DNA of 64,000 nt from an uncultured Gammaproteobacteria bacterium. GTDB lineage: Bacteria; Patescibacteriota; Microgenomatia; PFEM01; DATLAM01. Below the pieces are notes generated by a model. That model saw only the letters and a list, made by a program, of their open reading frames with translations, did no database searches and was not told the origin of the DNA. The stretch is from NCBI GenBank assembly GCA_964566925.1, contig CAZMIZ010000004.1:35951-99950 (forward strand), read 5' to 3'. The first letter of the stretch is position 1. The number at the start of each line of letters is the position of its first letter. Below, piece after piece: positions 970 through 64,000 of the stretch. Made by a program: the position numbers and the translations under genes.

Positions 970-2109
970 TTAAGCAATAAAGAAACCCCGAGTGAAAAGA
1001 GCGACCGAGATAATCAGCAGACCCCCGGCGATGAGCGGATAAACCGTCTTCAGCCAGCGGTATTTTTCTGACCAAAGACTAAGAAGAATGAAGCCAGGAA
1101 AGCAAACCAAGACATAACGAGGCAATGAAGAAAGTGTCCCGGTTAAAGTGGGCGTTAGATAGGCAAGAATCATAAAAGTGAAATAGGAGAGCCTTAAACG
1201 GAGATAAGCGAAAATTGAAAGAAATAAAAATAGGAGGCCAGTTAAAAATTCTAAAATAACGGTGAAATAAGTCGGAGTCATTTTCTCAACCGTCACCAAC
1301 ATCTTCAGATAGCGCCAAAAAACCTGATATAGAAGAATAATCTTGCCCCCAGTCCGCTGAGCTCCGAAAAACGGCTGAACATGAATGAAATAAAGAGGAT
1401 CACTCACCGTCTGTCTCAAGTACCCCATATAGATTAAAAGCCCCAAGCCAATCAAAAATAGAGGCAAAAGACTGGTTAATTTTTTCTTTTTCAATTTTTC
1501 GTTCTGCTGAAACCACTCGACCAGAAGAGCCGGAAATAAAAAAATGCCGATAAATCTGGTTGCGCTGGCCATCGCCCCTAAAACACCAGCCATACCCCAC
1601 TGACCTTTCCGAGCGGCATAAAAAGCGCCCAAAACCAGCAATAAAAATAGAGATTCCGTGTAAATACCGCCGAAGAAGAAGGAAGTAGGGAAAATAAGAA
1701 GGTAAAAAAGAACCCTCTTGGCTTGATTCTCCTTAAGATCTAATCTCGCTAGCTTATACAACAAAACCAGGGCAGCTAAAAAACAGAGGTGGGAAATCAA
1801 AAAACCTGAAAGGAGATAGTTTTTTACAAAAATCGCCAAAGAGCGCATCAGGTAGGGATAAAAAGGAAAAAAGGCCTGTTGAAACTGATAGTAGCCCCTC
1901 TCGGCGATGGTTAGATAATGAACGCCATCAAAATTTGCCCAAGACCAGAGGAAAGGATTTTTCAAATAGGCCCCCCTTCCTCCTCCTAGAAATCCCTCAC
2001 GCAAAGGGAAAAACTTGCTTCCCATCAAAGCAATCAAAATCAAAGCCACCCGCCAAATAATAAAGGCGGTTCCTATCCACTGGAGTAAAGCTTTAGTTTT
2101 CTTGGTCAT
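970..2109 (-). CDS. Polytopic membrane protein, possible GT-C mannosyltransferase (PIG-V/DUF2029-like)
   Basis: 379-aa ORF with multiple hydrophobic segments. Motif WANFDGVHYLTIAERGYYQFQQAFFPFYPYL resembles PIG-V/GT87-like mannosyltransferases. Confidence 0.45.
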   Translation of the reverse strand: MTKKTKALLQWIGTAFIIWRVALILIALMGSKFFPLREGFLGGGRGAYLKNPFLWSWANFDGVHYLTIAERGYYQFQQAFFPFYPYLMRSLAIFVKNYLLSGFLISHLCFLAALVLLYKLARLDLKENQAKRVLFYLLIFPTSFFFGGIYTESLFLLLVLGAFYAARKGQWGMAGVLGAMASATRFIGIFLFPALLVEWFQQNEKLKKKKLTSLLPLFLIGLGLLIYMGYLRQTVSDPLYFIHVQPFFGAQRTGGKIILLYQVFWRYLKMLVTVEKMTPTYFTVILEFLTGLLFLFLSIFAYLRLRLSYFTFMILAYLTPTLTGTLSSLPRYVLVCFPGFILLSLWSEKYRWLKTVYPLIAGGLLIISVALFTRGFFIA

Positions 2110-3151
2110 AAACTTTTTGGTAAACCTTAACTGTCTCTCGAGCGGTTTTCTCCCAACTAAACTTTTCTACTTGTTTTAACCCTTTCTTAACCAGTTTTTC
2201 TCTCAGTATTTTATCATTAAACACTTTTTTAATCCCCCGACCAATCTCTCTTCTCCGGTGGGGATTAACCATGACCGCGGCTCCCCCACAGATTTCTGGC
2301 AAGCTTGAAGTCTCGGCCGCAACTACCGGCGTTCCGCAAGCCATGGCCTCCAAAACTGGCAAACCAAAGCCTTCATAAAAAGAGGGTTGACAATAAACGG
2401 TGGCCAAATTATAGAGGGCCACTAAATCTTTTATTGGCACAAAGCCAATCCGGATAACATCAGGGTCCTTTCCATACAATTTAATTAATTGAACTAAAGG
2501 CTGATCTTCAATATGAGAAGAGTTAAAATTTTCCTGAGCGGCGGGTTTGCTAACAATGACAATTTTAATTTTCGCTTGTTTAGACGCCTCCACTAAACCT
2601 AAAACATTTTTATTATAATTAATATCGCCAACATAAAGAACAAACTTTTCTGGCAAGCTATATTTTTTCTTTAATCTTAATAATAACTTTCCCGACTTGA
2701 TTGGTTTAAACTCCTCTCCAGGCGCCAGATGAATAACCTTAATTCCTTTTTTAGGAAAACCGATAAATCGAACAATATCTTCTTTTGAATTTTGAGAATC
2801 AGTAATAATCGCCTTGGCTCCCTTTAAAGAATGCTTCTGGATCTGATATTTGGCGCTCCCCCGTAAGCCCTTAGGAAATTTATCAGGAAAAACCAGAGGA
2901 GTTAAATCATGAACGGTTACCACCGTCGGCCTAGACTTTTTTAAAGGTAAAGTCAACCAGAATAAGTCAAAGTAGGGATAGTGGATCAGATCAAATTGAT
3001 GATTGATGATTGATGATTGATGATTGATAAGAAAATACTCGTTTTTCTGATCATGTTTTTTTAATGATTCAACCAAGCACTTGGTATAAACTCCCACGCC
3101 CCGAAATTGATGGGAAGACTTTAGTGGAGAAATATCAATTGCCACTTTCAT
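2093..3151 (-). CDS. GT4 (group 1) glycosyltransferase
   Basis: Canonical GT4 C-terminal motif EGFGLPVLEAMACGTPVVAAETSSLPEICGGAAV. Contains an in-frame (ATTGATG)~5 repeat. Confidence 0.85.
   Translation of the reverse strand: MKVAIDISPLKSSHQFRGVGVYTKCLVESLKKHDQKNEYFLINHQSSIINHQFDLIHYPYFDLFWLTLPLKKSRPTVVTVHDLTPLVFPDKFPKGLRGSAKYQIQKHSLKGAKAIITDSQNSKEDIVRFIGFPKKGIKVIHLAPGEEFKPIKSGKLLLRLKKKYSLPEKFVLYVGDINYNKNVLGLVEASKQAKIKIVIVSKPAAQENFNSSHIEDQPLVQLIKLYGKDPDVIRIGFVPIKDLVALYNLATVYCQPSFYEGFGLPVLEAMACGTPVVAAETSSLPEICGGAAVMVNPHRRREIGRGIKKVFNDKILREKLVKKGLKQVEKFSWEKTARETVKVYQKVYDQEN
2995..3028. repeat. (ATTGATG)x~4.9 heptanucleotide tandem repeat inside the GT4 CDS (encodes INHQSSIINHQ)
   Basis: Read directly: attgatg attgatg attgatg attgatg attgat. 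Confidence 0.9.
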
Positions 3152-4653: not shown

Positions 4654-5515
4654 TCTGTTTTCCCCAATATTTAATGTAAGCCACTGTAAATCTTAAACCT
4701 GAAAACAAAGAAAAAACAAATCCCGGGAAGCCATCCATAAAACCTTTGTGGCGAAAGTAAGTCAAAAAAAACCAATGAAGCGGCTTGGCCAATAGATAAT
4801 CAAAACCGTTGATCAGTCCGATGTCAACCTTTTTCTCTTCCATTTCATTGACCATAAGATCGGTGTAGCGGTTAAACCTCAGACGATAACGGCTAAAATT
4901 AGGGTCAGCTAAATGAAGAAGGGCGTTTTGCAACCAACCTACTCTGCCATTAATCTTAATTTGTTCATGAACACTCTGGCACGGGAAACGAGCCTTTGAA
5001 TTTTTGACCAAACGGATCACTCCATCAGGGTAAACGCCACCATGGCGAAGATACCTGCCAAGAAAATAATTTAAGCGGGGGAGAAAAAAACCAACATACT
5101 CCCCCCTTTCTTGCCCAATCTTACCATCTCTTTTCTCAACAATCTCTTGATGCTTTAGAAACAACCGTCTTTGGGGCAATGTTTTTTGATATTCTTCGAT
5201 TTTGTCATCGTTCATCGAAAAAATCTTGAGAATCTCTTCAGCCAGTTTCGAGGTAACTCTCTCATCGGCATCCAGTTGCAAAATCCACTCTCCTTTGCAA
5301 GCATCAACCGCCATCTGTTTGTTGATATGAAAAATAGGCTTATTAGTAGTTTTAATGACCCTGGCCCCGTGTTTTCTGGCTATCTCTCTAGTTTTGTCTT
5401 GCGAGCTCCCATCAACAACAATCATCTCATCCGCCAGCTGGTGAACTGACTCCAAGCAAGGACCAATGTTTTCTTCCTCATTAAAAGTAGCGATGGCCAC
5501 CGAAATTTTTTTCAT
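4643..5515 (-). CDS. GT2 glycosyltransferase (paralog group with 19198 and 23539)
   Basis: MKKISVAIATFNEEENI...VVDGSSQDKT...LDADE, and C-terminal motif HGGVYPDGVIRLVKNSKARFPCQSVHEQ. Start taken at MKKISV; the ORF extends to 5527. Confidence 0.8.
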   Translation of the reverse strand: MKKISVAIATFNEEENIGPCLESVHQLADEMIVVDGSSQDKTREIARKHGARVIKTTNKPIFHINKQMAVDACKGEWILQLDADERVTSKLAEEILKIFSMNDDKIEEYQKTLPQRRLFLKHQEIVEKRDGKIGQERGEYVGFFLPRLNYFLGRYLRHGGVYPDGVIRLVKNSKARFPCQSVHEQIKINGRVGWLQNALLHLADPNFSRYRLRFNRYTDLMVNEMEEKKVDIGLINGFDYLLAKPLHWFFLTYFRHKGFMDGFPGFVFSLFSGLRFTVAYIKYWGKQNEN

Positions 5516-5589: not shown

Positions 5590-6849
5590 TCATTTCCTAG
5601 TATAGATATAGTAAAGATAAGATTGGGTCATTGATTCGCTGAATTTAACCTTTTCACCTCTATTAATTTTCTCTATCACTACTTGCCTATCCTTTATCAA
5701 GCCGCCTCTAGGGGAATCGGTCACCGATGTTAAAACGTTCCTGTAGGCCCAAAAAAGCCAAAATAGGATTATCAATATTGCAAGAGGCTTAACCCCTGAA
5801 CGCAAGATCCAAATTGCTAGCCAAGAAACTATATAAATTGCCAGAGGCATCGTAGGAAGGAAATAATAATCTGATAAGGGGCCGCTATAGAGGGTAAAAC
5901 CAACTAAAGTCACCCAAAACCAAAGAAAGAAAACTATCCCAACAAACCGACTGTTCTTGTTCTGAGGGAAGACGATAAATACAATCCCAAAAATTATTGG
6001 CAAAATATACTTTAAAAATTTTAAACTTTCGAAAAAAAGAGCAGAGTCAAACATTATTAAAGCGTCATTCAAACGATAGATCATAAACCGAAAATGAAAT
6101 CCATGATAATAGTATTTTAAGAATTCTTGAAACTTATAATAATCACTTAGCCCGTGTTGAAGCTCATGAATAATATTAGGGATAAAAAATAAACTAAAGG
6201 CCAATATCGATCCCGCCATCCAAGGAAATGCTTGCTTTTTATTCCTTATAAAAAACAAAGAGAGAACCACAATCGGAGGAATAAAAACGGCAGTAAAATG
6301 TAAATGAAAGAAAAATCCCGCCAATAAACCTAAGGGAATAAACCACCTATTATTGCCTTCGTATATTTTGAAAAGGCTGTAAAAAATCCAAACAGAGGCC
6401 ATCATCACTAAAGAAACATTCCAGGGAACCCGATCCATCGAGATAAGATATCGACAAAAAGCGTAAATAAAAGTTGAGAGATAGGCAACTTTTATTCCGA
6501 AGACTTCACGAGCCACCCAGAAAATTGAAATAATTGTTAATAAGCTGGCAAAAATTGAAAAATAACTTGAGGCAATGGGATCAAGGTTTGTCAAAAGATA
6601 AAAAGGGGCCAAAAGATAATAAAAGACAGGGCCGAGATGAAAATGACCAATTCCGGTTCTGGGCCCAATCAAAGGAAGTTTTTTATCAACAAGCATCTCC
6701 TTCATTGCCCAAGCATCCCTCGCTTGATCCCAGCCAAAGGGAGTTACCTTCTCGATGTTGTAAAATCTTAAAAAAAGACCTGCGGCAATCAAGAGGATAA
6801 TCGAAAAGGCTTTAAATTTTTCTAACAATTTTAATTGCTTCTTCGCCAT
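5590..6849 (-). CDS. Polytopic membrane glycosyltransferase, GT39/ArnT-like
   Basis: Internal start MAKKQLKLLEKFKAFSIILLIAAGLFLRFYNIEKVTPFGWDQARD is preferred. The 83-aa extension to 7098 would overlap the upstream gene by ~290 nt. Confidence 0.5.
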   Translation of the reverse strand: MAKKQLKLLEKFKAFSIILLIAAGLFLRFYNIEKVTPFGWDQARDAWAMKEMLVDKKLPLIGPRTGIGHFHLGPVFYYLLAPFYLLTNLDPIASSYFSIFASLLTIISIFWVAREVFGIKVAYLSTFIYAFCRYLISMDRVPWNVSLVMMASVWIFYSLFKIYEGNNRWFIPLGLLAGFFFHLHFTAVFIPPIVVLSLFFIRNKKQAFPWMAGSILAFSLFFIPNIIHELQHGLSDYYKFQEFLKYYYHGFHFRFMIYRLNDALIMFDSALFFESLKFLKYILPIIFGIVFIVFPQNKNSRFVGIVFFLWFWVTLVGFTLYSGPLSDYYFLPTMPLAIYIVSWLAIWILRSGVKPLAILIILFWLFWAYRNVLTSVTDSPRGGLIKDRQVVIEKINRGEKVKFSESMTQSYLYYIYTRK

Positions 6850-19956: not shown

Positions 19957-20020
19957 CTTAATCCTAATTATACCTCGTTTCACTCAGGTAATCTCTTAGA
20001 TTATACCTTGCCTTACTGGT

Positions 20021-27055: not shown

Positions 27056-28684
27056 CTAGTTCAAGTCTTGTCCCGCAGATAAAGGAAGAAAAAAGCCGAA
27101 TTTTTGGATTTCTTCAATCTGTTCGGGTTGAAGGTTGTCTAGCTTGTCTCTTCTCATTAACAAAGGCGAGGGATCATTCCCCTGGCGTAACTGGATGTAA
27201 TCAGCCACCACCGGATCAAAAACGCTTTTGGCGGCCTCGCCAACACTAGAGTATTCATAATAAACAAAAACAGGAGGGTTTCCCTCTAGGTCGTTTTTAA
27301 TTTCGTTTTTTAATCCTTCATTCCAGAAAATCCATTCATAGTAATAAAGAAAGCGATTTTGAGGACTAAGACCGCTAACAAAATACAAAAGCTGTTCAAC
27401 GGGAATCACCATTAGCTTATCATTGCTAGAAGCAAGGTTTCTAATCGCCTGGCCGGTTCCCTCTAAATAAGAAAAGTTCACCCAAAAATCGCGATAATAA
27501 TCCGGTTGGCGAAAATATTCTCTAAAGAAAAACTGGCCGGTAAAGGCAAAAATTAAAATCATCAGAATTAAACCGGCGAAGGTTAGAGTTCTTTTTTTAA
27601 CCGACTGCCAATTCAGCAAGAAAACCCTTTTAATTTGAAGAATAGTCAGGATGATTATCGCGGCCCACCAGGGGAAGCCATGAAAGCCTTCATACAAAAC
27701 CGCTTGAGGATAGACCAAGCGCAAACTGGTGGTCCCGAGCAGAAAAAAACTAAAAACCAGGAATAATTTCTTTTTCTTTTCTTTAAAAAGTAAATACACA
27801 AAGCTGAGAAGGTAAAAACCACACCAGATTTTGGCAAAAAGGCCAAAATCTCCCTTGACAGGCTCAATCAGGGCGATAACCGGCTTTAAAAAAGAATAGG
27901 CCAAAAGACGAGATGCCCCTTGATTGGCGGTATCTTCAAGATAATGGCTGGTGAGTGCCGCCTTAGTATTAAGAAAATATTCTTGATAGCTAACAAGAGG
28001 AGAAAAGAGAAGGAAAAGGAAACCAAAAAAAAGAATTAGGGGGAGGACGATTTTCTTATGAAATTTCTCCCTGACAAGAAGATAGAAAATCAGGATCGCG
28101 GAAAAAGGGATCAGAATAATCAACTGGAAAGGAATTAAAACCAAACTAAAGAGAAAGAGGTATCGCCCCCAGCTATTAATCGGCCCCTTGGCTAACTCTT
28201 TTTTCCAAAGATAGGCAAGAACAAAGGCAAGAGGGTAAATTACCAGCGACTCGCCCAAAAAAAGATCGCCCAACAAAAGCCTTTTTATCAGCTCTATCAC
28301 CAGAGAAAAAGTGAGACCAGCGGCGCCGAAAAAATAAAGAAACCCCAGCCACCAGAGAACCGAATAAAAGAAAACCGCCTCCCGGTGTCTTTTAATAAGG
28401 AGAAACAAAGAATTAGGCTTTAAGGTCTTATTAATTAAGGCGCTGAAAGCCGCGGGCATCGGCTGTTTGTGGGAAAAAATATCAGCGTAAAGTTTCTGGC
28501 CTTGGGCCAGATAATGGCCAGCCATCAAATTTTCGTCTTCGTCAACAAAATGAGTGTTAAACATATGAGACTGAAGCGTCCGGAAAGCAAAAAAGACCAA
28601 ACCAAAAAAAATGATAACCAAGAATATTTTTTTTAATAAAGAAAGATCAGCTGAAGATTTTTTTAGCACCCAACCCCCCTCCAA
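27056..28684 (-). CDS. Large polytopic membrane protein, unknown
   Basis: 542 aa, many TM segments. N-terminal region HFVDEDENLMAGHYLAQGQKLYADIFSHKQPMP. Confidence 0.4.
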   Translation of the reverse strand: MEGGWVLKKSSADLSLLKKIFLVIIFFGLVFFAFRTLQSHMFNTHFVDEDENLMAGHYLAQGQKLYADIFSHKQPMPAAFSALINKTLKPNSLFLLIKRHREAVFFYSVLWWLGFLYFFGAAGLTFSLVIELIKRLLLGDLFLGESLVIYPLAFVLAYLWKKELAKGPINSWGRYLFLFSLVLIPFQLIILIPFSAILIFYLLVREKFHKKIVLPLILFFGFLFLLFSPLVSYQEYFLNTKAALTSHYLEDTANQGASRLLAYSFLKPVIALIEPVKGDFGLFAKIWCGFYLLSFVYLLFKEKKKKLFLVFSFFLLGTTSLRLVYPQAVLYEGFHGFPWWAAIIILTILQIKRVFLLNWQSVKKRTLTFAGLILMILIFAFTGQFFFREYFRQPDYYRDFWVNFSYLEGTGQAIRNLASSNDKLMVIPVEQLLYFVSGLSPQNRFLYYYEWIFWNEGLKNEIKNDLEGNPPVFVYYEYSSVGEAAKSVFDPVVADYIQLRQGNDPSPLLMRRDKLDNLQPEQIEEIQKFGFFLPLSAGQDLN

Positions 28685-30374
28685 CCAAAACGATCGCCGC
28701 TAATAAGGAAACCAAGTTGGCTAAACTGCGCACCGGCGTGTCGGTAAAGACGACCTCGACCTGATGTTCCCCTTCAGGAACATCCAAACTGATCAGTTTC
28801 AACTTACCTGATTCCTGAATCCCAATCTCTTCTTGATCAAGAAAAGCTTTCCAGCCGGGAAAATTATAAACATTAACTCTCAATTCTCCTTGACCTTTTG
28901 TGGTCAAGATTTTTTGATGAGGAAAGTCTTTAACTACTTCAACTTCTAAATCGCCGGTTAAGGCTTGATAGGCTGTCTTGCCAATTCCCTCCTCGGCGAT
29001 ATCCAGCTGGGTGGTACCAATATCAGATAATCTGGTGGCCACTCCTTTGGGAACAAATTCAAAAGAAAGCCCGCTCACTCGCCATTTCAAATCCTTTTCA
29101 GAAGTATAATCACGATCACCAACTTCAAGATAATCAGCAGGCTGAAAATAGGCCTGATTTGAAAAGATAACCAAAACTAAAGGAACTAAAACCGCTCCCC
29201 ACTGAAGAACTCTTTTCCCTTTAAGCTGCTTAAAAATGAAATTGACGCCTCCACCCACAAGCAGAGAAGAAAAAAAGGCGGCTAAGATCAGAAAACGCCA
29301 GGGAAACTGAAGATACCAAAGAGGCTGAATTCGATCCCAGATTAGCTGGGAACGAAAACTGGTCATGAAGAGGGAAAGAATAAAGAATAAAGAATAAAGA
29401 ATAAAGAATAAGCCAGTCTTTTTTCTTTTCAAAAGTAAATAAGGGCCCAAAATACTTGCTAAGAAGCTTAAAATTAGGTGGAGTTTGCCCACTTCGAAGG
29501 AAATCCCGTCCTCCAAGCCCATGATTGAACCACCATAACCCCAGGGGGAATCCCAAAGCTGGCGCAGGTAAACAAAATGAAGCTTATAGTTGGCCAGCTC
29601 ACCGGTCAAAATGGTATCCACTAAGGTTTCTTTCTTCTCCCAAAGGGCTGGCAACCAAAAATAACAGGTAAGGCCTAAAAACAAGATAAACGACACCGAG
29701 ACTAACCAAACTGCTCTTTTCTTTACTTTCTCAAAGAAAAGAAAGAAGAGAACGAAGGCAAAATAAAAGGGCATCAGGATCAGGGCAATGAAGTTATGGC
29801 TTAAAAGCAGAAGAGATAAAAAAAGACTATTGATTATCAACCATTTAATGTTTTTTCTTTTAATCAGCTTGAAGGTTGACCAAAAAACAGCCGGCAAAAA
29901 AACAAAAGTGTAGAATTCGGCAAAGGCACCCCGGACATAAAGATCTAGGGCGTGATACGGTGCATAAATGTAAAAAGCGGCCGCCCCTAAACCGCCAACT
30001 TTCCCAAAAAATTCTTTGGCCAAAAGATAAATAAAAATCCCGGAAAGGATAAACCCCAACCCCATAACGATTTTAGTCGAAACAATTAAGGAAAAACCAA
30101 GCCAATAAAAAATCTCGCCTAAATAATAAACTAAGGGAGGGTAAAAGTTAAAAAGAGGATAGCCATACCCAAAGCCTAAATTCCCTACCCAGCGAGGTGG
30201 AAACTGACCGCCAGTTAAAGCCTGATCAAGTTCGTAAAGTCGAGCAATCTGCTCATCATCATGCATCGGGAAAAAACCGGGAAGAAGGAGAGGTCTAATC
30301 GCCCAAAAAGATAAAAGGAGAATGGCTAACAGCCACCAATGGTTTTTAATTAGAGCGCTTAATCTATTCTTCAT
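28647..30374 (-). CDS. Large polytopic membrane protein, family 'A' paralog 2
   Basis: LLLPGFFPMHDDEQIARLYELDQALTGGQFPPRWVGNLGFGYGYPLFNFYPP. Contains an in-frame (AAAGAAT)5 repeat. Confidence 0.5.
   Translation of the reverse strand: MKNRLSALIKNHWWLLAILLLSFWAIRPLLLPGFFPMHDDEQIARLYELDQALTGGQFPPRWVGNLGFGYGYPLFNFYPPLVYYLGEIFYWLGFSLIVSTKIVMGLGFILSGIFIYLLAKEFFGKVGGLGAAAFYIYAPYHALDLYVRGAFAEFYTFVFLPAVFWSTFKLIKRKNIKWLIINSLFLSLLLLSHNFIALILMPFYFAFVLFFLFFEKVKKRAVWLVSVSFILFLGLTCYFWLPALWEKKETLVDTILTGELANYKLHFVYLRQLWDSPWGYGGSIMGLEDGISFEVGKLHLILSFLASILGPYLLLKRKKTGLFFILYSLFFILSLFMTSFRSQLIWDRIQPLWYLQFPWRFLILAAFFSSLLVGGGVNFIFKQLKGKRVLQWGAVLVPLVLVIFSNQAYFQPADYLEVGDRDYTSEKDLKWRVSGLSFEFVPKGVATRLSDIGTTQLDIAEEGIGKTAYQALTGDLEVEVVKDFPHQKILTTKGQGELRVNVYNFPGWKAFLDQEEIGIQESGKLKLISLDVPEGEHQVEVVFTDTPVRSLANLVSLLAAIVLVGGGLGAKKIFS
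29375..29412. repeat. (AAAGAAT)x5.4 heptanucleotide tandem repeat inside the family-A membrane protein CDS (encodes FFILYSLFFILSLF)
   Basis: Read directly: aaagaat x5 + aag. Confidence 0.9.
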
Positions 30375-60088: not shown

Positions 60089-62548
60089 ATGGAAACCTTT
60101 TCTGCCTATCTTTTTTGGCATTATGTCTTTGCGCCAAAGAAGCTTTTAAGGATCACAACCAATTTTTTCCTTTTCTTTTATTATTACTTCTCAGTCAGAA
60201 TTTTGGTCCGAACCTTCTTCTCTCCCTGGAAAAGGCAAACGATTAAAAGAGAAAGGAGGCTTAGTCTTTCTAACCTCCTCCAGGTTCTTTCTTTTAACCT
60301 TATCTCCCGAACGATTGGGGCCATTGTTCGAGGAATCGTTTTATTGGGCTGGTTCTGGAGTGAAGTCGTCGTCTTTTTCTTTTTTCTTTTCCTTTTCCCC
60401 GCCTGGATAATCATTCCGGGGTTCACCTCCCCTCTTTTCCTTTACTTGAGGAAGCCACCTGATCCTGCCTTAAAGTTAATTAAAAAGAGGGTTAGCGATC
60501 CAGAAAAAATCTTTCGGTTTCTGCTTAAAACCGAGATGGGCAAATTTCTTTTCTCTCGACTAGGCATTTTACCAGGGAAGTTCACCGACTCATTAACCAA
60601 AACCCCTCCCAAAGACCAACCCTTCCCCTTACCCAAAACCCCTTCCTCAACCCGCCTCTTCTATCTTTTGGCTAAAAACTGGTCACCTTTTAAAAAATTT
60701 CTTTTTGAAAAAGAATTGGACGAAAAAGACATCCTCACTGTTTGCCGTTGGTTTGAAAGGATTAAGAAAGAGGAACGACACCAGATTCGCTTCTGGGAGT
60801 CCGAAAATCTTTTAAGCATGAGGGGGATTGGCAAAGATTGGGCCTATGGTTACACCCTTGATTTGGATAAATACTCGGATGATTTAACCCAACCTTTGCC
60901 TTTTTCTCACCATCTGGTCGGCCGCGAAAAAGAAGTCGAACTGATCCAACAGGTTCTCTCCCGAGCCGAAGAAAACAACGTTTTGCTGGTTGGCCAACCG
61001 GGCATTGGCCGTCACACAATTATTTTAGAGTTGGCCAAAAAAGTGAAAGAAGGAAGAGTCCATCCTTCTTTAGCTCATAAACGAGTTCTCTCTTTAAATC
61101 TTAATCTCCTCTTGGGTTCTTCGGAATCACTGGTAAAGGCAAAAGGTCTTATTGAGACCGTTCTTCAAGAAGCCACCAAGGCCGGCAATGTCATCCTGGT
61201 CATTGACAGTTTTGACAAATTTGTTTCCAGTGGTTCTGGCCGAATCGACTTAACTGACCTTTTTAAAGAAAGTTCAACTGGAGCCAGGCTTCAAGTCATT
61301 GGCATTACCACCCCCGCTGCTTTCCAGAAATATATCTTCCCTAACCAGGAAATTATGAAAGCTTTTGAAAAGGTCGAGGCTGAACCACCCAGTCTCAAAG
61401 AGGCCCTGGTGATTCTCCAAGACACGACTCCTTTTTATGAGAAACGAAATAATGTTTTTGTTCTTCATCAAACCTTAACCGAGATCGTTACCAAGTCTGA
61501 CCAGTATGTGACCGAAATTCCCTTTCCGGAGAAAGCAATTGACCTTCTTGATGAGAGCTGCGTCTTTACCTCAACAAAAGCCAAAAAGCCTCTCGTCACC
61601 CCTAAGGAAGTTAATCAAGTTTTGGCGGAAAAAATCAAAATTCCTTTAGGCGATATTAAAAAAGAGGAGCAAGAAAAACTGAAACAGCTAGAAAGTCTCT
61701 TGCATAAAAGAATCGTTAACCAAGAAATAGCTGTCAGTCAAATTGCCAAAGCGATGCGTCGAGCTAGGCTAGGAATTGCCCAAAAAGACAAGCCAATTGG
61801 TACTTTCCTCTTTTTGGGCCCCACCGGGGTGGGTAAAACCGAAACCGCTAAAGCCTTAGCCGAAGCCTATTTTGGCCACGAAAAACGAATGATTCGTTTC
61901 GATATGAGCGAATATCAAGGCCAAGACGCGATCAAAAGAGTTCTTGGCAATCAAACGACTGAAGAACCAGGTTTAATCGCCTCGGCCATCCGGAAAAATC
62001 CTTTCTCTTTGCTTCTTTTGGATGAAATTGAAAAAGCCCACCCTGATATTCTTAATCTTTTTCTGGTTCTCCTTGATGAAGGTTTTTTCACTGACGCCTT
62101 TGGTAAAAAAATCGATTGTCGTAACCTGATTGTCATTGGCACTTCCAACGCTGGCAGTGAATTTATTCGGGAAGAACTTAACCGAGGGACTGATAAAAAC
62201 CAATTGCCAGCCAAAGTTTTAGACTTCGTTCAGAAAAAGGAAATCTTTTCTCCGGAATTTCTTAATCGTTTTGATGCGGTCGTTGTTTATGGGCCATTAA
62301 ATAAAGACCAATTAAAAAAGGTTGCCCAACTCCTTCTCCAAAGACTAAACCAGAGACTGGCCGAAAAAGATCTGAAGCTAAAAATTGATGATCAACTAAT
62401 TGAAAAAGTGGCTGAGTTAGGCTATAGTCCCACCCTTGGCGCCCGACCAATGAAACGAGTTATCCAAGACAAAATCGAGGATCAAATTGCCCAGCGAATC
62501 CTTAAAGGAGAATTAAAAAGAGGCCAAAAAGTCGAAATCAACCTTTAA
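60089..62548 (+). CDS. ClpA/ClpB-like double-AAA+ ATPase with N-terminal transmembrane region; degenerate first nucleotide-binding module
   Basis: D1: LVGREKEVELIQQVLSRAEENNVLLVGQPGIGRHTI (Walker A K->R) and VILVIDSFD (Walker B DE->DS). D2 intact: FLGPTGVGKTE and LLLLDEIEKAH. TM segments at ~aa 70-115. Confidence 0.75.
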   Translation: METFSAYLFWHYVFAPKKLLRITTNFFLFFYYYFSVRILVRTFFSPWKRQTIKRERRLSLSNLLQVLSFNLISRTIGAIVRGIVLLGWFWSEVVVFFFFLFLFPAWIIIPGFTSPLFLYLRKPPDPALKLIKKRVSDPEKIFRFLLKTEMGKFLFSRLGILPGKFTDSLTKTPPKDQPFPLPKTPSSTRLFYLLAKNWSPFKKFLFEKELDEKDILTVCRWFERIKKEERHQIRFWESENLLSMRGIGKDWAYGYTLDLDKYSDDLTQPLPFSHHLVGREKEVELIQQVLSRAEENNVLLVGQPGIGRHTIILELAKKVKEGRVHPSLAHKRVLSLNLNLLLGSSESLVKAKGLIETVLQEATKAGNVILVIDSFDKFVSSGSGRIDLTDLFKESSTGARLQVIGITTPAAFQKYIFPNQEIMKAFEKVEAEPPSLKEALVILQDTTPFYEKRNNVFVLHQTLTEIVTKSDQYVTEIPFPEKAIDLLDESCVFTSTKAKKPLVTPKEVNQVLAEKIKIPLGDIKKEEQEKLKQLESLLHKRIVNQEIAVSQIAKAMRRARLGIAQKDKPIGTFLFLGPTGVGKTETAKALAEAYFGHEKRMIRFDMSEYQGQDAIKRVLGNQTTEEPGLIASAIRKNPFSLLLLDEIEKAHPDILNLFLVLLDEGFFTDAFGKKIDCRNLIVIGTSNAGSEFIREELNRGTDKNQLPAKVLDFVQKKEIFSPEFLNRFDAVVVYGPLNKDQLKKVAQLLLQRLNQRLAEKDLKLKIDDQLIEKVAELGYSPTLGARPMKRVIQDKIEDQIAQRILKGELKRGQKVEINL

Positions 62549-63540
62549 CCCTGATAACCTTGAGGATGGCTTTGGTGCCACTGCCAAGCGCTCTTCACAA
62601 TTGATTCCAAATCAGAATATTTTGGTTGCCAGGAAAATTCCTTTTTAATTTTGCGATTATCGGCATAAAGTCGGGCAGGATCACCTGGTCTTCGGGGACC
62701 AATTTCGGTTTTAAAATCAAGGCCGGAGACTTTCTTTACCTTGGCCACCACCTCTTTAACCGAATAGCCTTGGCCAGTGCCCACATTAAAAAACTCCGTT
62801 TTTTTTCTCTTTTCTAATCTTTCTAAAGCCAAAAGATGAACTTTAGCCAAATCAAGAACATGGATATAATCCCGAATACAGGTTCCATCAGGGGTTGGGT
62901 AGTCGTCCCCATAAATAACTAGCTTTTTCCTCTTCCCTAAAGCGGTTTGGCAAGCCAGGGGAATCAAGTGGGTTTCCGGATCATGATCCTCGCCTATTGA
63001 GCCATCAGGAGCCGCCCCCGCGGCATTAAAATAGCGAAGAGAAATTGAATGAAGACCAAAAATATTTTCATACCAACTCAAGATCTTTTCGACCATCAAT
63101 TTTGATTCGCCATAAGGACTTTCTGGTTTTTTCTTCTCCCCTTCAACAATCGGCAGTTTCTCGGGCTGACCATAAACAGCACAGGTTGAGGAAAAAACGA
63201 TTTTCTTAACCTGATTTTTTCTCATTGCTTCCAGTAAATTCAGGGTCCCACCCACATTATTGAGAAAATACTTGGCTGGTTTTTCCATTGACTCCCCCGT
63301 CAGGGCATAGGCGGCAAAATGAACCACCCCAGCAAATTTTTCTTTTTTGAAGGTTCCTTCCAGGAGATCCTTATCGGTTGTCAAATCACCCTTGATTAGA
63401 TTGAAGCCAGTCACCGCCTCTTGATGGCCATATCGAAGATTATCAAAAATAACGACCTCGTAACCCTTTTTTTTAAGAGCTTGAGCCGTAAAACTACCAA
63501 TGTAACCAGCTCCGCCAGTGACTAAAATCTTTTTATTCAT
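62545..63540 (-). CDS. galE: UDP-glucose 4-epimerase
   Basis: MNKKILVTGGAGYIGSFTAQALKKKGYEVVIFDNL...YGESKLMVEKIL. Confidence 0.9.
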   Translation of the reverse strand: MNKKILVTGGAGYIGSFTAQALKKKGYEVVIFDNLRYGHQEAVTGFNLIKGDLTTDKDLLEGTFKKEKFAGVVHFAAYALTGESMEKPAKYFLNNVGGTLNLLEAMRKNQVKKIVFSSTCAVYGQPEKLPIVEGEKKKPESPYGESKLMVEKILSWYENIFGLHSISLRYFNAAGAAPDGSIGEDHDPETHLIPLACQTALGKRKKLVIYGDDYPTPDGTCIRDYIHVLDLAKVHLLALERLEKRKKTEFFNVGTGQGYSVKEVVAKVKKVSGLDFKTEIGPRRPGDPARLYADNRKIKKEFSWQPKYSDLESIVKSAWQWHQSHPQGYQG

Positions 63541-63832
63541 ACTTTGGTTCTGCTAGCTTCCCGACTTTTTGGTTGTTAATGGGAATCTTTAAAGCCCAGC
63601 CTAAAGCATTGGCCACCGAAATCCCCACTCTTAAACCAGTAAATGATCCCGGCCCCAGATTAACCTTAATCTCCTTAATCTGTTTAAGCGAAACCCGGCT
63701 CTTTTTCAAAACTTGATCAATTTCGGCCAACAACTGTTGGCTTCGATGTTCTTTGGCCGTAAAGGTCCAGGTCTTTTTATCCAACCCTATTATAGTTTTT
63801 TTATTATCGGATGTGTCAAGAAAGAGAATCAT
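63533..63832 (-). CDS. tsaB: TsaB/YeaZ-like protein, N-terminal half only (99 aa)
   Basis: MILFLDTSDNKKTIIGL...NLGPGSFTGLRVGISVANALGWALKIP. It ends where full-length TsaB would continue, and overlaps galE by 8 nt. Confidence 0.55.
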   Translation of the reverse strand: MILFLDTSDNKKTIIGLDKKTWTFTAKEHRSQQLLAEIDQVLKKSRVSLKQIKEIKVNLGPGSFTGLRVGISVANALGWALKIPINNQKVGKLAEPKYE

Positions 63833-63920
63833 AATTAATGACTAATGATTAATGACTGATGACTGATGATTGATGAATTCGACCATTAATCATTGATCAT
63901 CGATCATTAATCATTAATTT
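63833..63920. repeat. Imperfect palindromic array of YTRATGA heptamers (6 direct + ~4.5 inverted) around an EcoRI-like centre GAATTC
   Basis: ttaatga ctaatga ttaatga ctgatga ctgatga ttgatga attcgacc attaatc attgatc atcgatc attaatc attaat. Confidence 0.8.
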
Positions 63921-64000
63921 CAATTTTCCTCTGCTTTTCGCCTGCATACTCAAAATAAACCTCAATTCTTTTCTTAGGCAGAATGGTTTTAATCTTTTCG
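63908..64000 (-). CDS. 3' end of an unknown minus-strand CDS running off the window (...EYAGEKQRKIEIND*)
   Basis: Open minus-strand frame from the window edge to a stop inside the palindromic element. Confidence 0.25.

Follow-up and report, generated by a model that had tools for sequence, protein, structure and literature searches.

Proteins of the PF05635 family are the 23S rRNA intervening-sequence proteins, four-helix bundles that resemble bAvd. In Coxiella burnetii the intervening sequence (IVS) of the 23S rRNA carries such an open reading frame (ORF; PF05635/S23p) and is closed by a 28-bp terminal stem that is cut by RNase III in vitro; two to three tandem GACAGAT heptamers lie at the cut site, their number depending on the strain (PMC4990558). 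PF05635 ORFs are also present in rRNA insertions of bacteria of the candidate phyla radiation (CPR; PMC11270868). Here we describe an 88-bp palindrome located at positions 63833-63920 of a 64,000-nucleotide stretch of contig CAZMIZ010000004.1 (the window, by which we mean the whole stretch that was analysed), in which six TRATGAY heptamers face five inverted copies across the sequence GAATTCGACC, between the genes tsaE and tsaB. We consider it rather probable that this element is an ORF-less form of an IVS-type insertion, the stem of which is made of tandem 7-nt units.

The window element shares several features with the PF05635/S23p IVSs of Coxiella burnetii and Leptospira (PMC4990558), namely complementary ends that form a long and stable stem (~28-35 bp) and tandem heptamers whose number varies between strains, the slippage here being seen in a sister element. 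A PF05635 ORF enclosed in the stem is found in the homologous elements of the relatives L113, L120-L122 and L077 described below, and the sporadic presence and absence of the element suggests insertion. Unlike these IVSs, which interrupt helix 25 or 45 of 23S rRNA, the window element lies between protein genes in an mRNA; it is without an ORF, and its arms consist of five to six units and not of two to three repeats. Cleavage by RNase III, which was demonstrated for the Coxiella IVS, would apply to the window element by extension. Enterobacteria such as Salmonella have 23S rRNA IVSs of ~100 nt that lack an ORF, and we know of no report that these are composed of heptamer arrays. The window element, an ORF-less hairpin of ~100 nt positionally related to ORF-bearing IVSs, is like these short IVSs as they are cited within PMC4990558 and PMC11270868, except that the latter sit in rRNA; excision by RNase III is a feature of the Salmonella type and would be carried over to the window element by analogy only.

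Arrays of heptamers have also been described outside of rRNA. Xanthomonas genomes contain 70-75 convergent pairs of GGGAATC arrays each, and related strains differ in the length of these arrays (Rehm et al. 2015, PMC4692102). As in the window, these arrays are intergenic, with two convergent sites that could form stem-loops; in contrast, their unit is G-rich and was studied as a G-quadruplex former, and that study reported no connection with PF05635 or with stop/start junctions. Xanthomonas does encode an S23p/PF05635 protein, the crystal structure of which is cited in PMC4990558. In Geobacter metallireducens the 'class 3 global regulator binding sites' (MTYCTGA; Aklujkar et al. 2009, PMC2700814) are found at many intergenic sites and resemble the window element in having about five tandem heptamers arranged as inverted pairs on opposite strands, whereas their unit differs and they were read as putative DNA binding sites. 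The TAACTGA repeats of Beggiatoaceae, cyanobacteria and Bacteroidetes (MacGregor 2015, PMC4679880) hold two stop codons per heptamer and stops in all frames, lie a few nt ahead of start codons that have no Shine-Dalgarno sequence and differ between strains by indels in 7-nt steps, features that recall the window element. Unlike it, they are nearly always direct (one inverted case in 170), with the stop-containing orientation beside the start; the start-proximal arm of the window element is the stop-free one, (UCAUYAR)n, it is paired with an inverted partner, and the stop-containing arm is distal. Palindromes of the repetitive extragenic palindrome and bacterial interspersed mosaic element (REP/BIME), enterobacterial repetitive intergenic consensus (ERIC) and Correia types are transcribed intercistronic hairpins that can extend as far as stop codons and can affect mRNA decay, and those of the Correia type are RNase III targets. 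These families have a conserved consensus and are spread by transposition, whereas the arms of the window element are simple-sequence arrays whose unit differs by lineage.

A heptamer palindrome fills the tsaE-tsaB junction

The element makes up the entire 74-nt spacer between tsaE and tsaB, and both genes as well as galE are encoded on the minus strand (Table 1). The gene that enters from the window edge was identified as tsaE by an identity of 62% over 26 aa to the Pfam-confirmed TsaE of a relative, L076, and its last codons and TAA stop are supplied by the right arm of the element. On the gene-sense (minus) strand the left arm reads (TCATYAR)n, is free of stop codons and lies 2 nt ahead of the tsaB ATG. 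The right arm reads AATGATT AATGATC GATGATC AATGATT AATGG on this strand; since every unit contains an ATG together with a TGA or TAA, it has stops in all three frames. An all-frame stop cassette was considered as the defining property of such elements and rejected, as many inverted heptamer pairs are made of stop-free units. The heptamer consists of the palindromic hexamer ATTAAT followed by G in the left arm or by C in the right arm, and because the hexamer is palindromic the two arms are also 74% identical as direct repeats. Neither an ORF nor an ORF remnant is present in the 10-nt loop at the centre.

Tandem Repeats Finder reported period-7 arrays at 63836-63869 (4.9 copies) and at 63884-63918 (5.0 copies). 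The arms are thus heptanucleotide simple sequence repeats (SSRs) in the sense of Mrazek (2007), with head-to-tail 7-nt copies beyond chance, and a repeat search recovered them as inverted arms of 33 nt at 82% and of 50 nt at 72% complementarity. The three-unit pattern TRATGAYTRATGAYTRATGA, allowing up to two mismatches, was matched 10 times in the window compared with 0.00 matches expected from 100 shuffles, and a two-unit pattern 13 times compared with 0.54 expected. All three-unit matches fell into the 88-bp element and into a direct array at 2995-3028, within a GT4 glycosyltransferase gene, and so did the two-unit matches except for two singletons with one mismatch. The 64 kb of the window therefore hold one palindromic copy and one direct array of the heptamer.

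RNA folding of the gene-sense strand gave -34.9 kcal/mol (z -6.2) with a stem of ~35 bp, and folding of the antisense strand -34.4 kcal/mol (z -5.9); as DNA, the hairpin folded with -18.2 kcal/mol (z -4.2). None of the shuffled sequences did as well in any of the three. The initial annotation, made from the sequence alone, had pointed to a palindromic heptamer array with direct repeats on the left and inverted repeats on the right of GAATTC, to its overlap with the stop codon of the gene at the window edge, to the same heptamer in an in-frame repeat of the GT4 gene and, as one of three possibilities, to a large bidirectional hairpin, and on all these points the analysis agrees with it. No Rfam family reached its gathering score in the whole 64-kb window, in which we also found no rRNA and no tRNA. 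A permissive Rfam scan of 63000-64000 returned only generic hairpins (miRNA precursors) at 63842-63917, scoring 15-28 bits against thresholds of 53-135. The motif CTGATGA resembles C/D boxes and weak matches to snoRNA families were obtained; a box C/D or kink-turn RNA was rejected, as the scores are far below threshold and the units of the wider family are without these motifs.

PF05635 genes and duplicated arrays occupy the same junction in relatives

We examined the junction in ~45 orthologous loci, obtained from a metagenome scan with the TsaB-like protein and from a protein search followed by contig look-ups. In seven close relatives (L076, L114, L115, L116, L117, L118 and L119) the upstream gene, which wherever it was identifiable is TsaE or TsaC, overlaps tsaB through a 4-nt ATGA; their TsaB proteins, where measured, are 67-73% identical to that of the window. 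L114 has the same synteny as the window, with tsaE, tsaB, galE and, on the opposite strand, a ClpB-like gene. The spacers of most other relatives measure ~0-20 nt, and the junction of L083 contains three heptamer units only. The bare overlap in seven close relatives indicates that the 74-nt element is a derived insertion or expansion at an ATGA junction.

In L113, L120-L122 and L077, arms similar to those of the window are found at the tsaE-tsaB junction together with a PF05635 gene and a second copy of the tsaB-proximal array. L113, whose TsaB is 75% identical to that of the window, is arranged in the order tsaE (...ND, TAA), ten AATGRTY units, a loop, a (TCAxxxx)n arm, a PF05635 gene of 122 aa, TTATCAGTCATCAGTCATTAATCATTAGTC and the ATG of tsaB; L077 and L120-L122 share this architecture. 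Both the right arm of the window and the 5' arm of L113 start with the codons AAT GAT TAA of tsaE. Comparison of the window with L113 showed identity of the right arm to the 5' arm of L113 at 27/31 nt, and of the left arm to the array before the PF05635 gene at 28/30 nt and to the array before tsaB at 28/28 nt, whereas the flanking coding DNA is 69% (tsaB) and 67% (tsaE) identical. In the minimum free energy fold of L113 the 5' arm pairs with the distal array, and the ORF is enclosed in a long-range stem.

Judged by this alignment, the window looks like L113 minus the PF05635 gene and one array copy, as would be expected after recombination between two direct arrays; the alternative is that L113 arose by insertion. 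The window element may accordingly descend from an L113-like ancestor that lost its PF05635 gene through recombination between the two direct array copies; alternatively, it could represent a non-autonomous or precursor form.

The length of the arrays was found to vary in the sister element. L120 and L121, which derive from two different metagenomes, match at 1779/1781 aligned bases (99.9%) and are separated by one 77-nt gap. This gap equals exactly 11 heptamer units between PF05635 and tsaB, with 5 units in L120 and 16 units in L121; the difference between otherwise identical contigs indicates that heptamer arrays change by slippage. In L141 and L142, two of the viral contigs described below, the downstream arrays are one unit apart in length.

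PF05635 genes lie directly upstream of tsaB in several lineages of Patescibacteria (L077, L082, L086, L096, L113 and L120-L122), and this was the position of every PF05635 gene that turned up in 223 kb of CPR flanks. L082, L086 and L096 contain a second PF05635 lineage with AAATTGA-type units ahead of tsaB, so that two unrelated PF05635 lineages (23% identity) and two unrelated heptamer units are both found at tsaB.

Inverted heptamer arrays surround PF05635 genes in viral contigs

Searching the viral contigs of IMG/VR with a profile of 18 CPR PF05635 proteins, we detected 18 loci, 12 of which have a full-length gene (L133-L144). In 12/12 of these, the gene is flanked upstream by a heptamer array and downstream by an array of the complementary unit. 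Each lineage has its own units, most of them G+C-rich (for example AGGGAGT/ACTCCCT, GGGCTTT/AAGCCCA, GAGACTT/CCTCAAG, GGCTNTC/GCCGANN). The density of period-7 arrays is 5.7 per kb within 160 nt of the viral-contig PF05635 ORFs compared with 0.54 per kb elsewhere in the same loci, and the energies of the array-array duplexes, computed for L137, L138 and L144, range from -58 to -75 kcal/mol. Inverted heptamer arrays also surround PF05635 in a CPR context other than tsaB (L123-L132) and in the second PF05635 lineage at tsaB (L082, L086 and L096). Our literature search found no paper in which a general link of PF05635 with heptamers is drawn; the only stated link that it found is that of the two to three heptamers in the Coxiella IVS stem.

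ORF-less heptamer palindromes are found at gene junctions in many phyla

We scanned 185,579 GTDB species-representative genomes for a strict pattern in which three ATGAYYR units are followed, after 3-33 nt, by three inverted ones. The scan yielded 74 loci, in phyla including Planctomycetota, Chloroflexota, Bacteroidota, Acidobacteriota, Gemmatimonadota, Verrucomicrobiota and Pseudomonadota, with ~13 loci in one Isosphaeraceae metagenome-assembled genome (MAG) and ~9 in Roseilinea. The flanks of the 74 loci contain many more inverted pairs that are built of unrelated units. Heuristic ORF analysis classified 68 elements, of which 45 lie between co-directional, 17 between convergent and 6 between divergent genes. 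The upstream stop codon is found at the edge of the element (median -0.5 nt, interquartile range -11 to +11) and the downstream start at a median of 17 nt beyond it, indicating that the GTDB elements also fill gene junctions. Scans of viral contigs for the palindromic pattern, and for an 18-mer of the window element, gave no matches, and a literature search for the repeat strings returned nothing relevant.

Some of these elements deserve separate mention. In the Roseilinea MAG a palindromic ATGATTR heptamer element (L003, 331-417) fills the spacer between rplU (L21) and rpmA (L27), an essential ribosomal-protein operon. In the Isosphaeraceae MAG CBDIDH01 (L014, L021, L025 and L061) the heptamer palindromes have similar loops and are nested in outer inverted arms that are conserved, GGAGAATTGCAAAGTCC ... 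GGACTTTGCAATCCTCC; they are a true dispersed composite repeat family in that genome. Near-identical inverted pairs of (AAATTGA)x4.3/(TTTTCAA)x4.3, located ~1 kb apart at 5125-5266 and 6194-6305 of a distant metagenomic contig (L111), are another dispersed heptamer palindrome. Arrays of ATGACCA are presumably similar to the cyanobacterial STRR2 repeat (TTGGTCA); a literature search for STRR units was swamped by chance matches.

Alternative explanations for the palindrome

As we read it, the feature is real and is no one-off oddity: it is an ORF-less, mRNA-borne variant of a PF05635-type element with slippage-prone heptamer arrays. Several observations weigh against an IVS-type origin. The window element has no PF05635 sequence, its link to the family being one of position and arm similarity, and a PF05635 gene was found neither among the scanned small ORFs of the window nor by an iterative PF05635 search of all window ORFs. 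The 28/28 identity to L113 overstates homology, since the arm units are drawn from a small four-letter alphabet and an 18-mer common to the window and L113 is also found in one Chloroflexota and one Bacteroidota locus. Among the ORF-less GTDB loci, only 1/74 has a PF05635 gene within 4 kb. In the 45 co-directional GTDB elements the antisense fold was the more stable one in 32 and the sense fold in 11 (Wilcoxon p = 0.007, with orientation assigned heuristically); this bias, together with the equal folds of the two strands in the window, is unlike selection on a hairpin of the sense RNA. Strand-specific RNA selection was for this reason rejected as a candidate, the comparison of folds being unsupportive and, if anything, of opposite sign. 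Cleavage of the window hairpin by RNase III, finally, is suggested by analogy to Coxiella only.

The arrays could instead be a plain microsatellite, that is, a heptamer SSR without function and unrelated to PF05635, which grew in situ by slippage from the TAATGA/ATGA junction, was made symmetric by quasi-palindrome template switching and is tolerated because it is intergenic. Both of the canonical junction motifs, TAATG and ATGA, are contained in the unit, the junction was ATGA ancestrally, and the three units of L083 stand at the same tsaE-tsaB junction. Moreover, whole-unit slippage is seen in the sister array (L120/L121) and in L141/L142, the GT4 gene, at a distance of 61 kb, contains a perfect array of the same unit, convergence has produced the same unit order in other phyla, and heptanucleotide repeats are the commonest long SSRs in many bacteria (Mrazek 2007, as cited in PMC4679880). 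We nevertheless regard a microsatellite as unlikely, as both arms and their positions match the PF05635-bearing element of L113 far better than the flanking genes do, a run of six G-type units followed by five C-type units is unlike random slippage, and the regular pairing of inverted arrays around PF05635 ORFs makes the arrays part of a structured element. Still less likely is an iteron- or operator-like array acting at the DNA level, in which the heptamers would bind a regulator or a PF05635 pentamer and the palindrome would be the operator of tsaB. PF05635 proteins are bAvd-like, and bAvd binds nucleic acids. The arrays adjoin start codons both in the window and in the relatives, with the GTDB median of 17 nt to the downstream start, and the paired heptanucleotide repeats of Geobacter metallireducens are annotated as putative global-regulator sites (PMC2700814). 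The unit sequence, however, varies freely across lineages, which argues against a conserved DNA-binding specificity, and the element is embedded in a series of co-directional genes that resembles an operon, with no promoter-like signal above chance at 63400-64000. No regulator was found among the scanned small ORFs of the window, and PF05635 was missing there and in the search of all ORFs, as noted above. An iteron-like binding array had been offered in the initial annotation and is not supported, nor is a replication origin: the element is positioned between two cistrons, its neighbours tsaE, tsaB and galE are co-directional and include no replication initiator or other replication gene, and the GC skew is uniformly negative across the window, with no switch.

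A mobile element of the REP or miniature inverted-repeat transposable element (MITE) type, spread by a transposase to many genome sites, would fit the many copies in some genomes (~13 in the Isosphaeraceae MAG and ~9 in Roseilinea), the common conserved outer arms around the heptamers of the Isosphaeraceae copies and the presence and absence at the junction among relatives, which resembles insertion. Against this, the 64 kb of the window contain a single palindromic copy besides the direct array, and neither the loops nor the flanks show any relation when the window, L077, L113 and the 74 GTDB loci are compared. The window element lacks the consensus of such families in loop, termini and target-site duplication: neither terminal inverted repeats apart from the arrays nor a nearby transposase were seen, and the only target duplication is the trivial ATGA that is present in every unit. 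Viral contigs gave no matches either, and we hold a REP/MITE origin to be very improbable. The initial annotation had regarded a single copy of such a shape as unusual, a view that is contradicted by the 74 GTDB loci in many phyla, by the relatives and by the Xanthomonas and Geobacter literature. Its suggestion of a recombination site is borne out in part, in that relatives have the PF05635 gene between two direct tsaB-proximal arrays and the window resembles the looped-out form. The copy-number polymorphism that it proposed to look for was found in the sister element (the 11 units of L120/L121), a result that does not come from the window's own locus. Least credible to us is that the element acts as an intrinsic, possibly bidirectional, terminator or as an attenuator in the tsaE-tsaB spacer. 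Both strands form a long, stable hairpin, the plus strand continues into T-rich sequence, and 17/68 classified GTDB elements lie between convergent genes. A scan of 63400-64000 found no terminator-like site, however; the stem is AU-rich and no U-tract is present on the sense strand, tsaB and galE follow directly downstream without a promoter-like site, and in Roseilinea a similar element separates rplU from rpmA, a place at which strong termination would do harm.

Proposed effect on the tsaE-tsaB transcript and relation to PF05635

Under the IVS-type reading, the two arms are predicted to fold in the tsaE-tsaB transcript into a duplex of ~35 bp. By analogy with the PF05635-bearing IVS of Coxiella 23S rRNA, RNase III would cut this duplex and thereby separate or destabilise both cistrons, which we hold to be the likeliest mechanism. 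The stem would loop the insert out and leave the tsaE stop and the tsaB start, which lie at its two feet, spatially adjacent; this proximity may explain why an insert is tolerated at a junction that once overlapped and was translationally coupled. The element provides the stop codon of tsaE, and the expression of tsaB is probably modulated by it. It may benefit the host or may be a selfish remnant that is merely tolerated.

The tsaE-tsaB junction offers a natural series, from the bare ATGA overlap through a three-unit array and the ORF-less hairpin of the window to a hairpin with PF05635 and a second array, the last of which shows the 11-unit length polymorphism. The series makes the relation between heptamers and PF05635 directly testable. 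It would also follow that IVS-type elements can occupy the mRNAs of essential operons, tsaE-tsaB here and rplU-rpmA in Roseilinea, and RNase III processing in such mRNAs would, by analogy, uncouple adjacent cistrons. For the window itself the practical consequence is modest.

Two loose ends are perhaps connected in this way: the abundance of heptanucleotide repeats, often as inverted pairs near genes, and the role of PF05635 genes. We put forward, as a possibility about which we have more doubt than confidence, that PF05635 genes and heptanucleotide arrays are the two halves of one widespread selfish IVS-type module, which has its ORF inside a stem of inverted arrays and inserts at rRNA helices and at ATGA-type junctions, and of which the ORF-less palindromes are non-autonomous derivatives or footprints. 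Such footprints would include the window element, the 74 loci in Planctomycetota, Chloroflexota, Bacteroidota, Acidobacteriota and others, and possibly the heptamer arrays of Xanthomonas, Geobacter and cyanobacteria. If true, the module would explain some of the excess of 7-nt repeats in bacteria, and PF05635 would gain a testable role, for example in binding or propagating the heptamer stem.

Features of the window

Table 1. Coordinates of the palindrome, its parts and the neighbouring or related features in the window.
Feature	Position	Strand	Description
tsaB-proximal (left) arm	63836-63877	-	six heptamers, on the plus strand TAATGAC TAATGAT TAATGAC TGATGAC TGATGAT TGATGAA
Palindrome centre GAATTCGACC	63875-63884	no strand	GAATTC at 63875-63880; forms the hairpin loop; shares the last three bases of the left arm
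tsaE-proximal (right) arm	63885-63919	-	five inverted heptamers, on the plus strand ATTAATC ATTGATC ATCGATC ATTAATC ATTAAT(T)
Predicted core hairpin of the tsaE-tsaB transcript	63843-63916	-	~33-36 bp, AU-rich, few mismatches; centroid structure
tsaE 3' end (clipped at the window edge)	63907-64000	-	ends ...EKQRKIEIND, TAA at 63909-63907 (within the right arm), then TGA
Short TsaB-like gene	63533-63832	-	99 aa, PF00814; ATG at 63832-63830, in register with the heptamer array
galE	62545-63540	-	downstream of tsaB, as in the relative L114
Perfect (ATTGATG)x4.9 array in the GT4 glycosyltransferase gene 2093..3151	2995-3028	-	sense strand (CATCAAT)n, encodes LINHQSSIINHQ

The array in the GT4 gene has the same unit as the tsaE-tsaB element and lies in frame in an N-terminal loop. 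The gain or loss of one unit would shift the reading frame, which makes this gene a candidate for phase-variable surface glycosylation. A perfect (AAAGAAT)x5.3 heptamer array is found at 29375-29411, in a membrane glycosyltransferase gene of the PMT_2/PTPS_related type (28647..30374, minus strand), and is a second slippage-prone tract of the same glycosylation locus.

The ~60 kb at positions 1-60000 of the window encode genes that are nearly all on the minus strand and form a large cell-envelope glycosylation locus (GT4, PMT_2-like, rmlB/rmlD-like and galE genes); sortase, fn3, CAP, RtcB and LemA/TPM genes are also encoded there. Most genes of the window have no Shine-Dalgarno sequence, and TATAAT-like boxes are found 6-15 nt ahead of many starts, for example those at 19983, 26548, 37335, 41490, 51938, 52027, 53970 and 56674. 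The position of these boxes, together with the scarcity of Shine-Dalgarno sequences, suggests that leaderless mRNAs or mRNAs with a very short leader are common in this organism.

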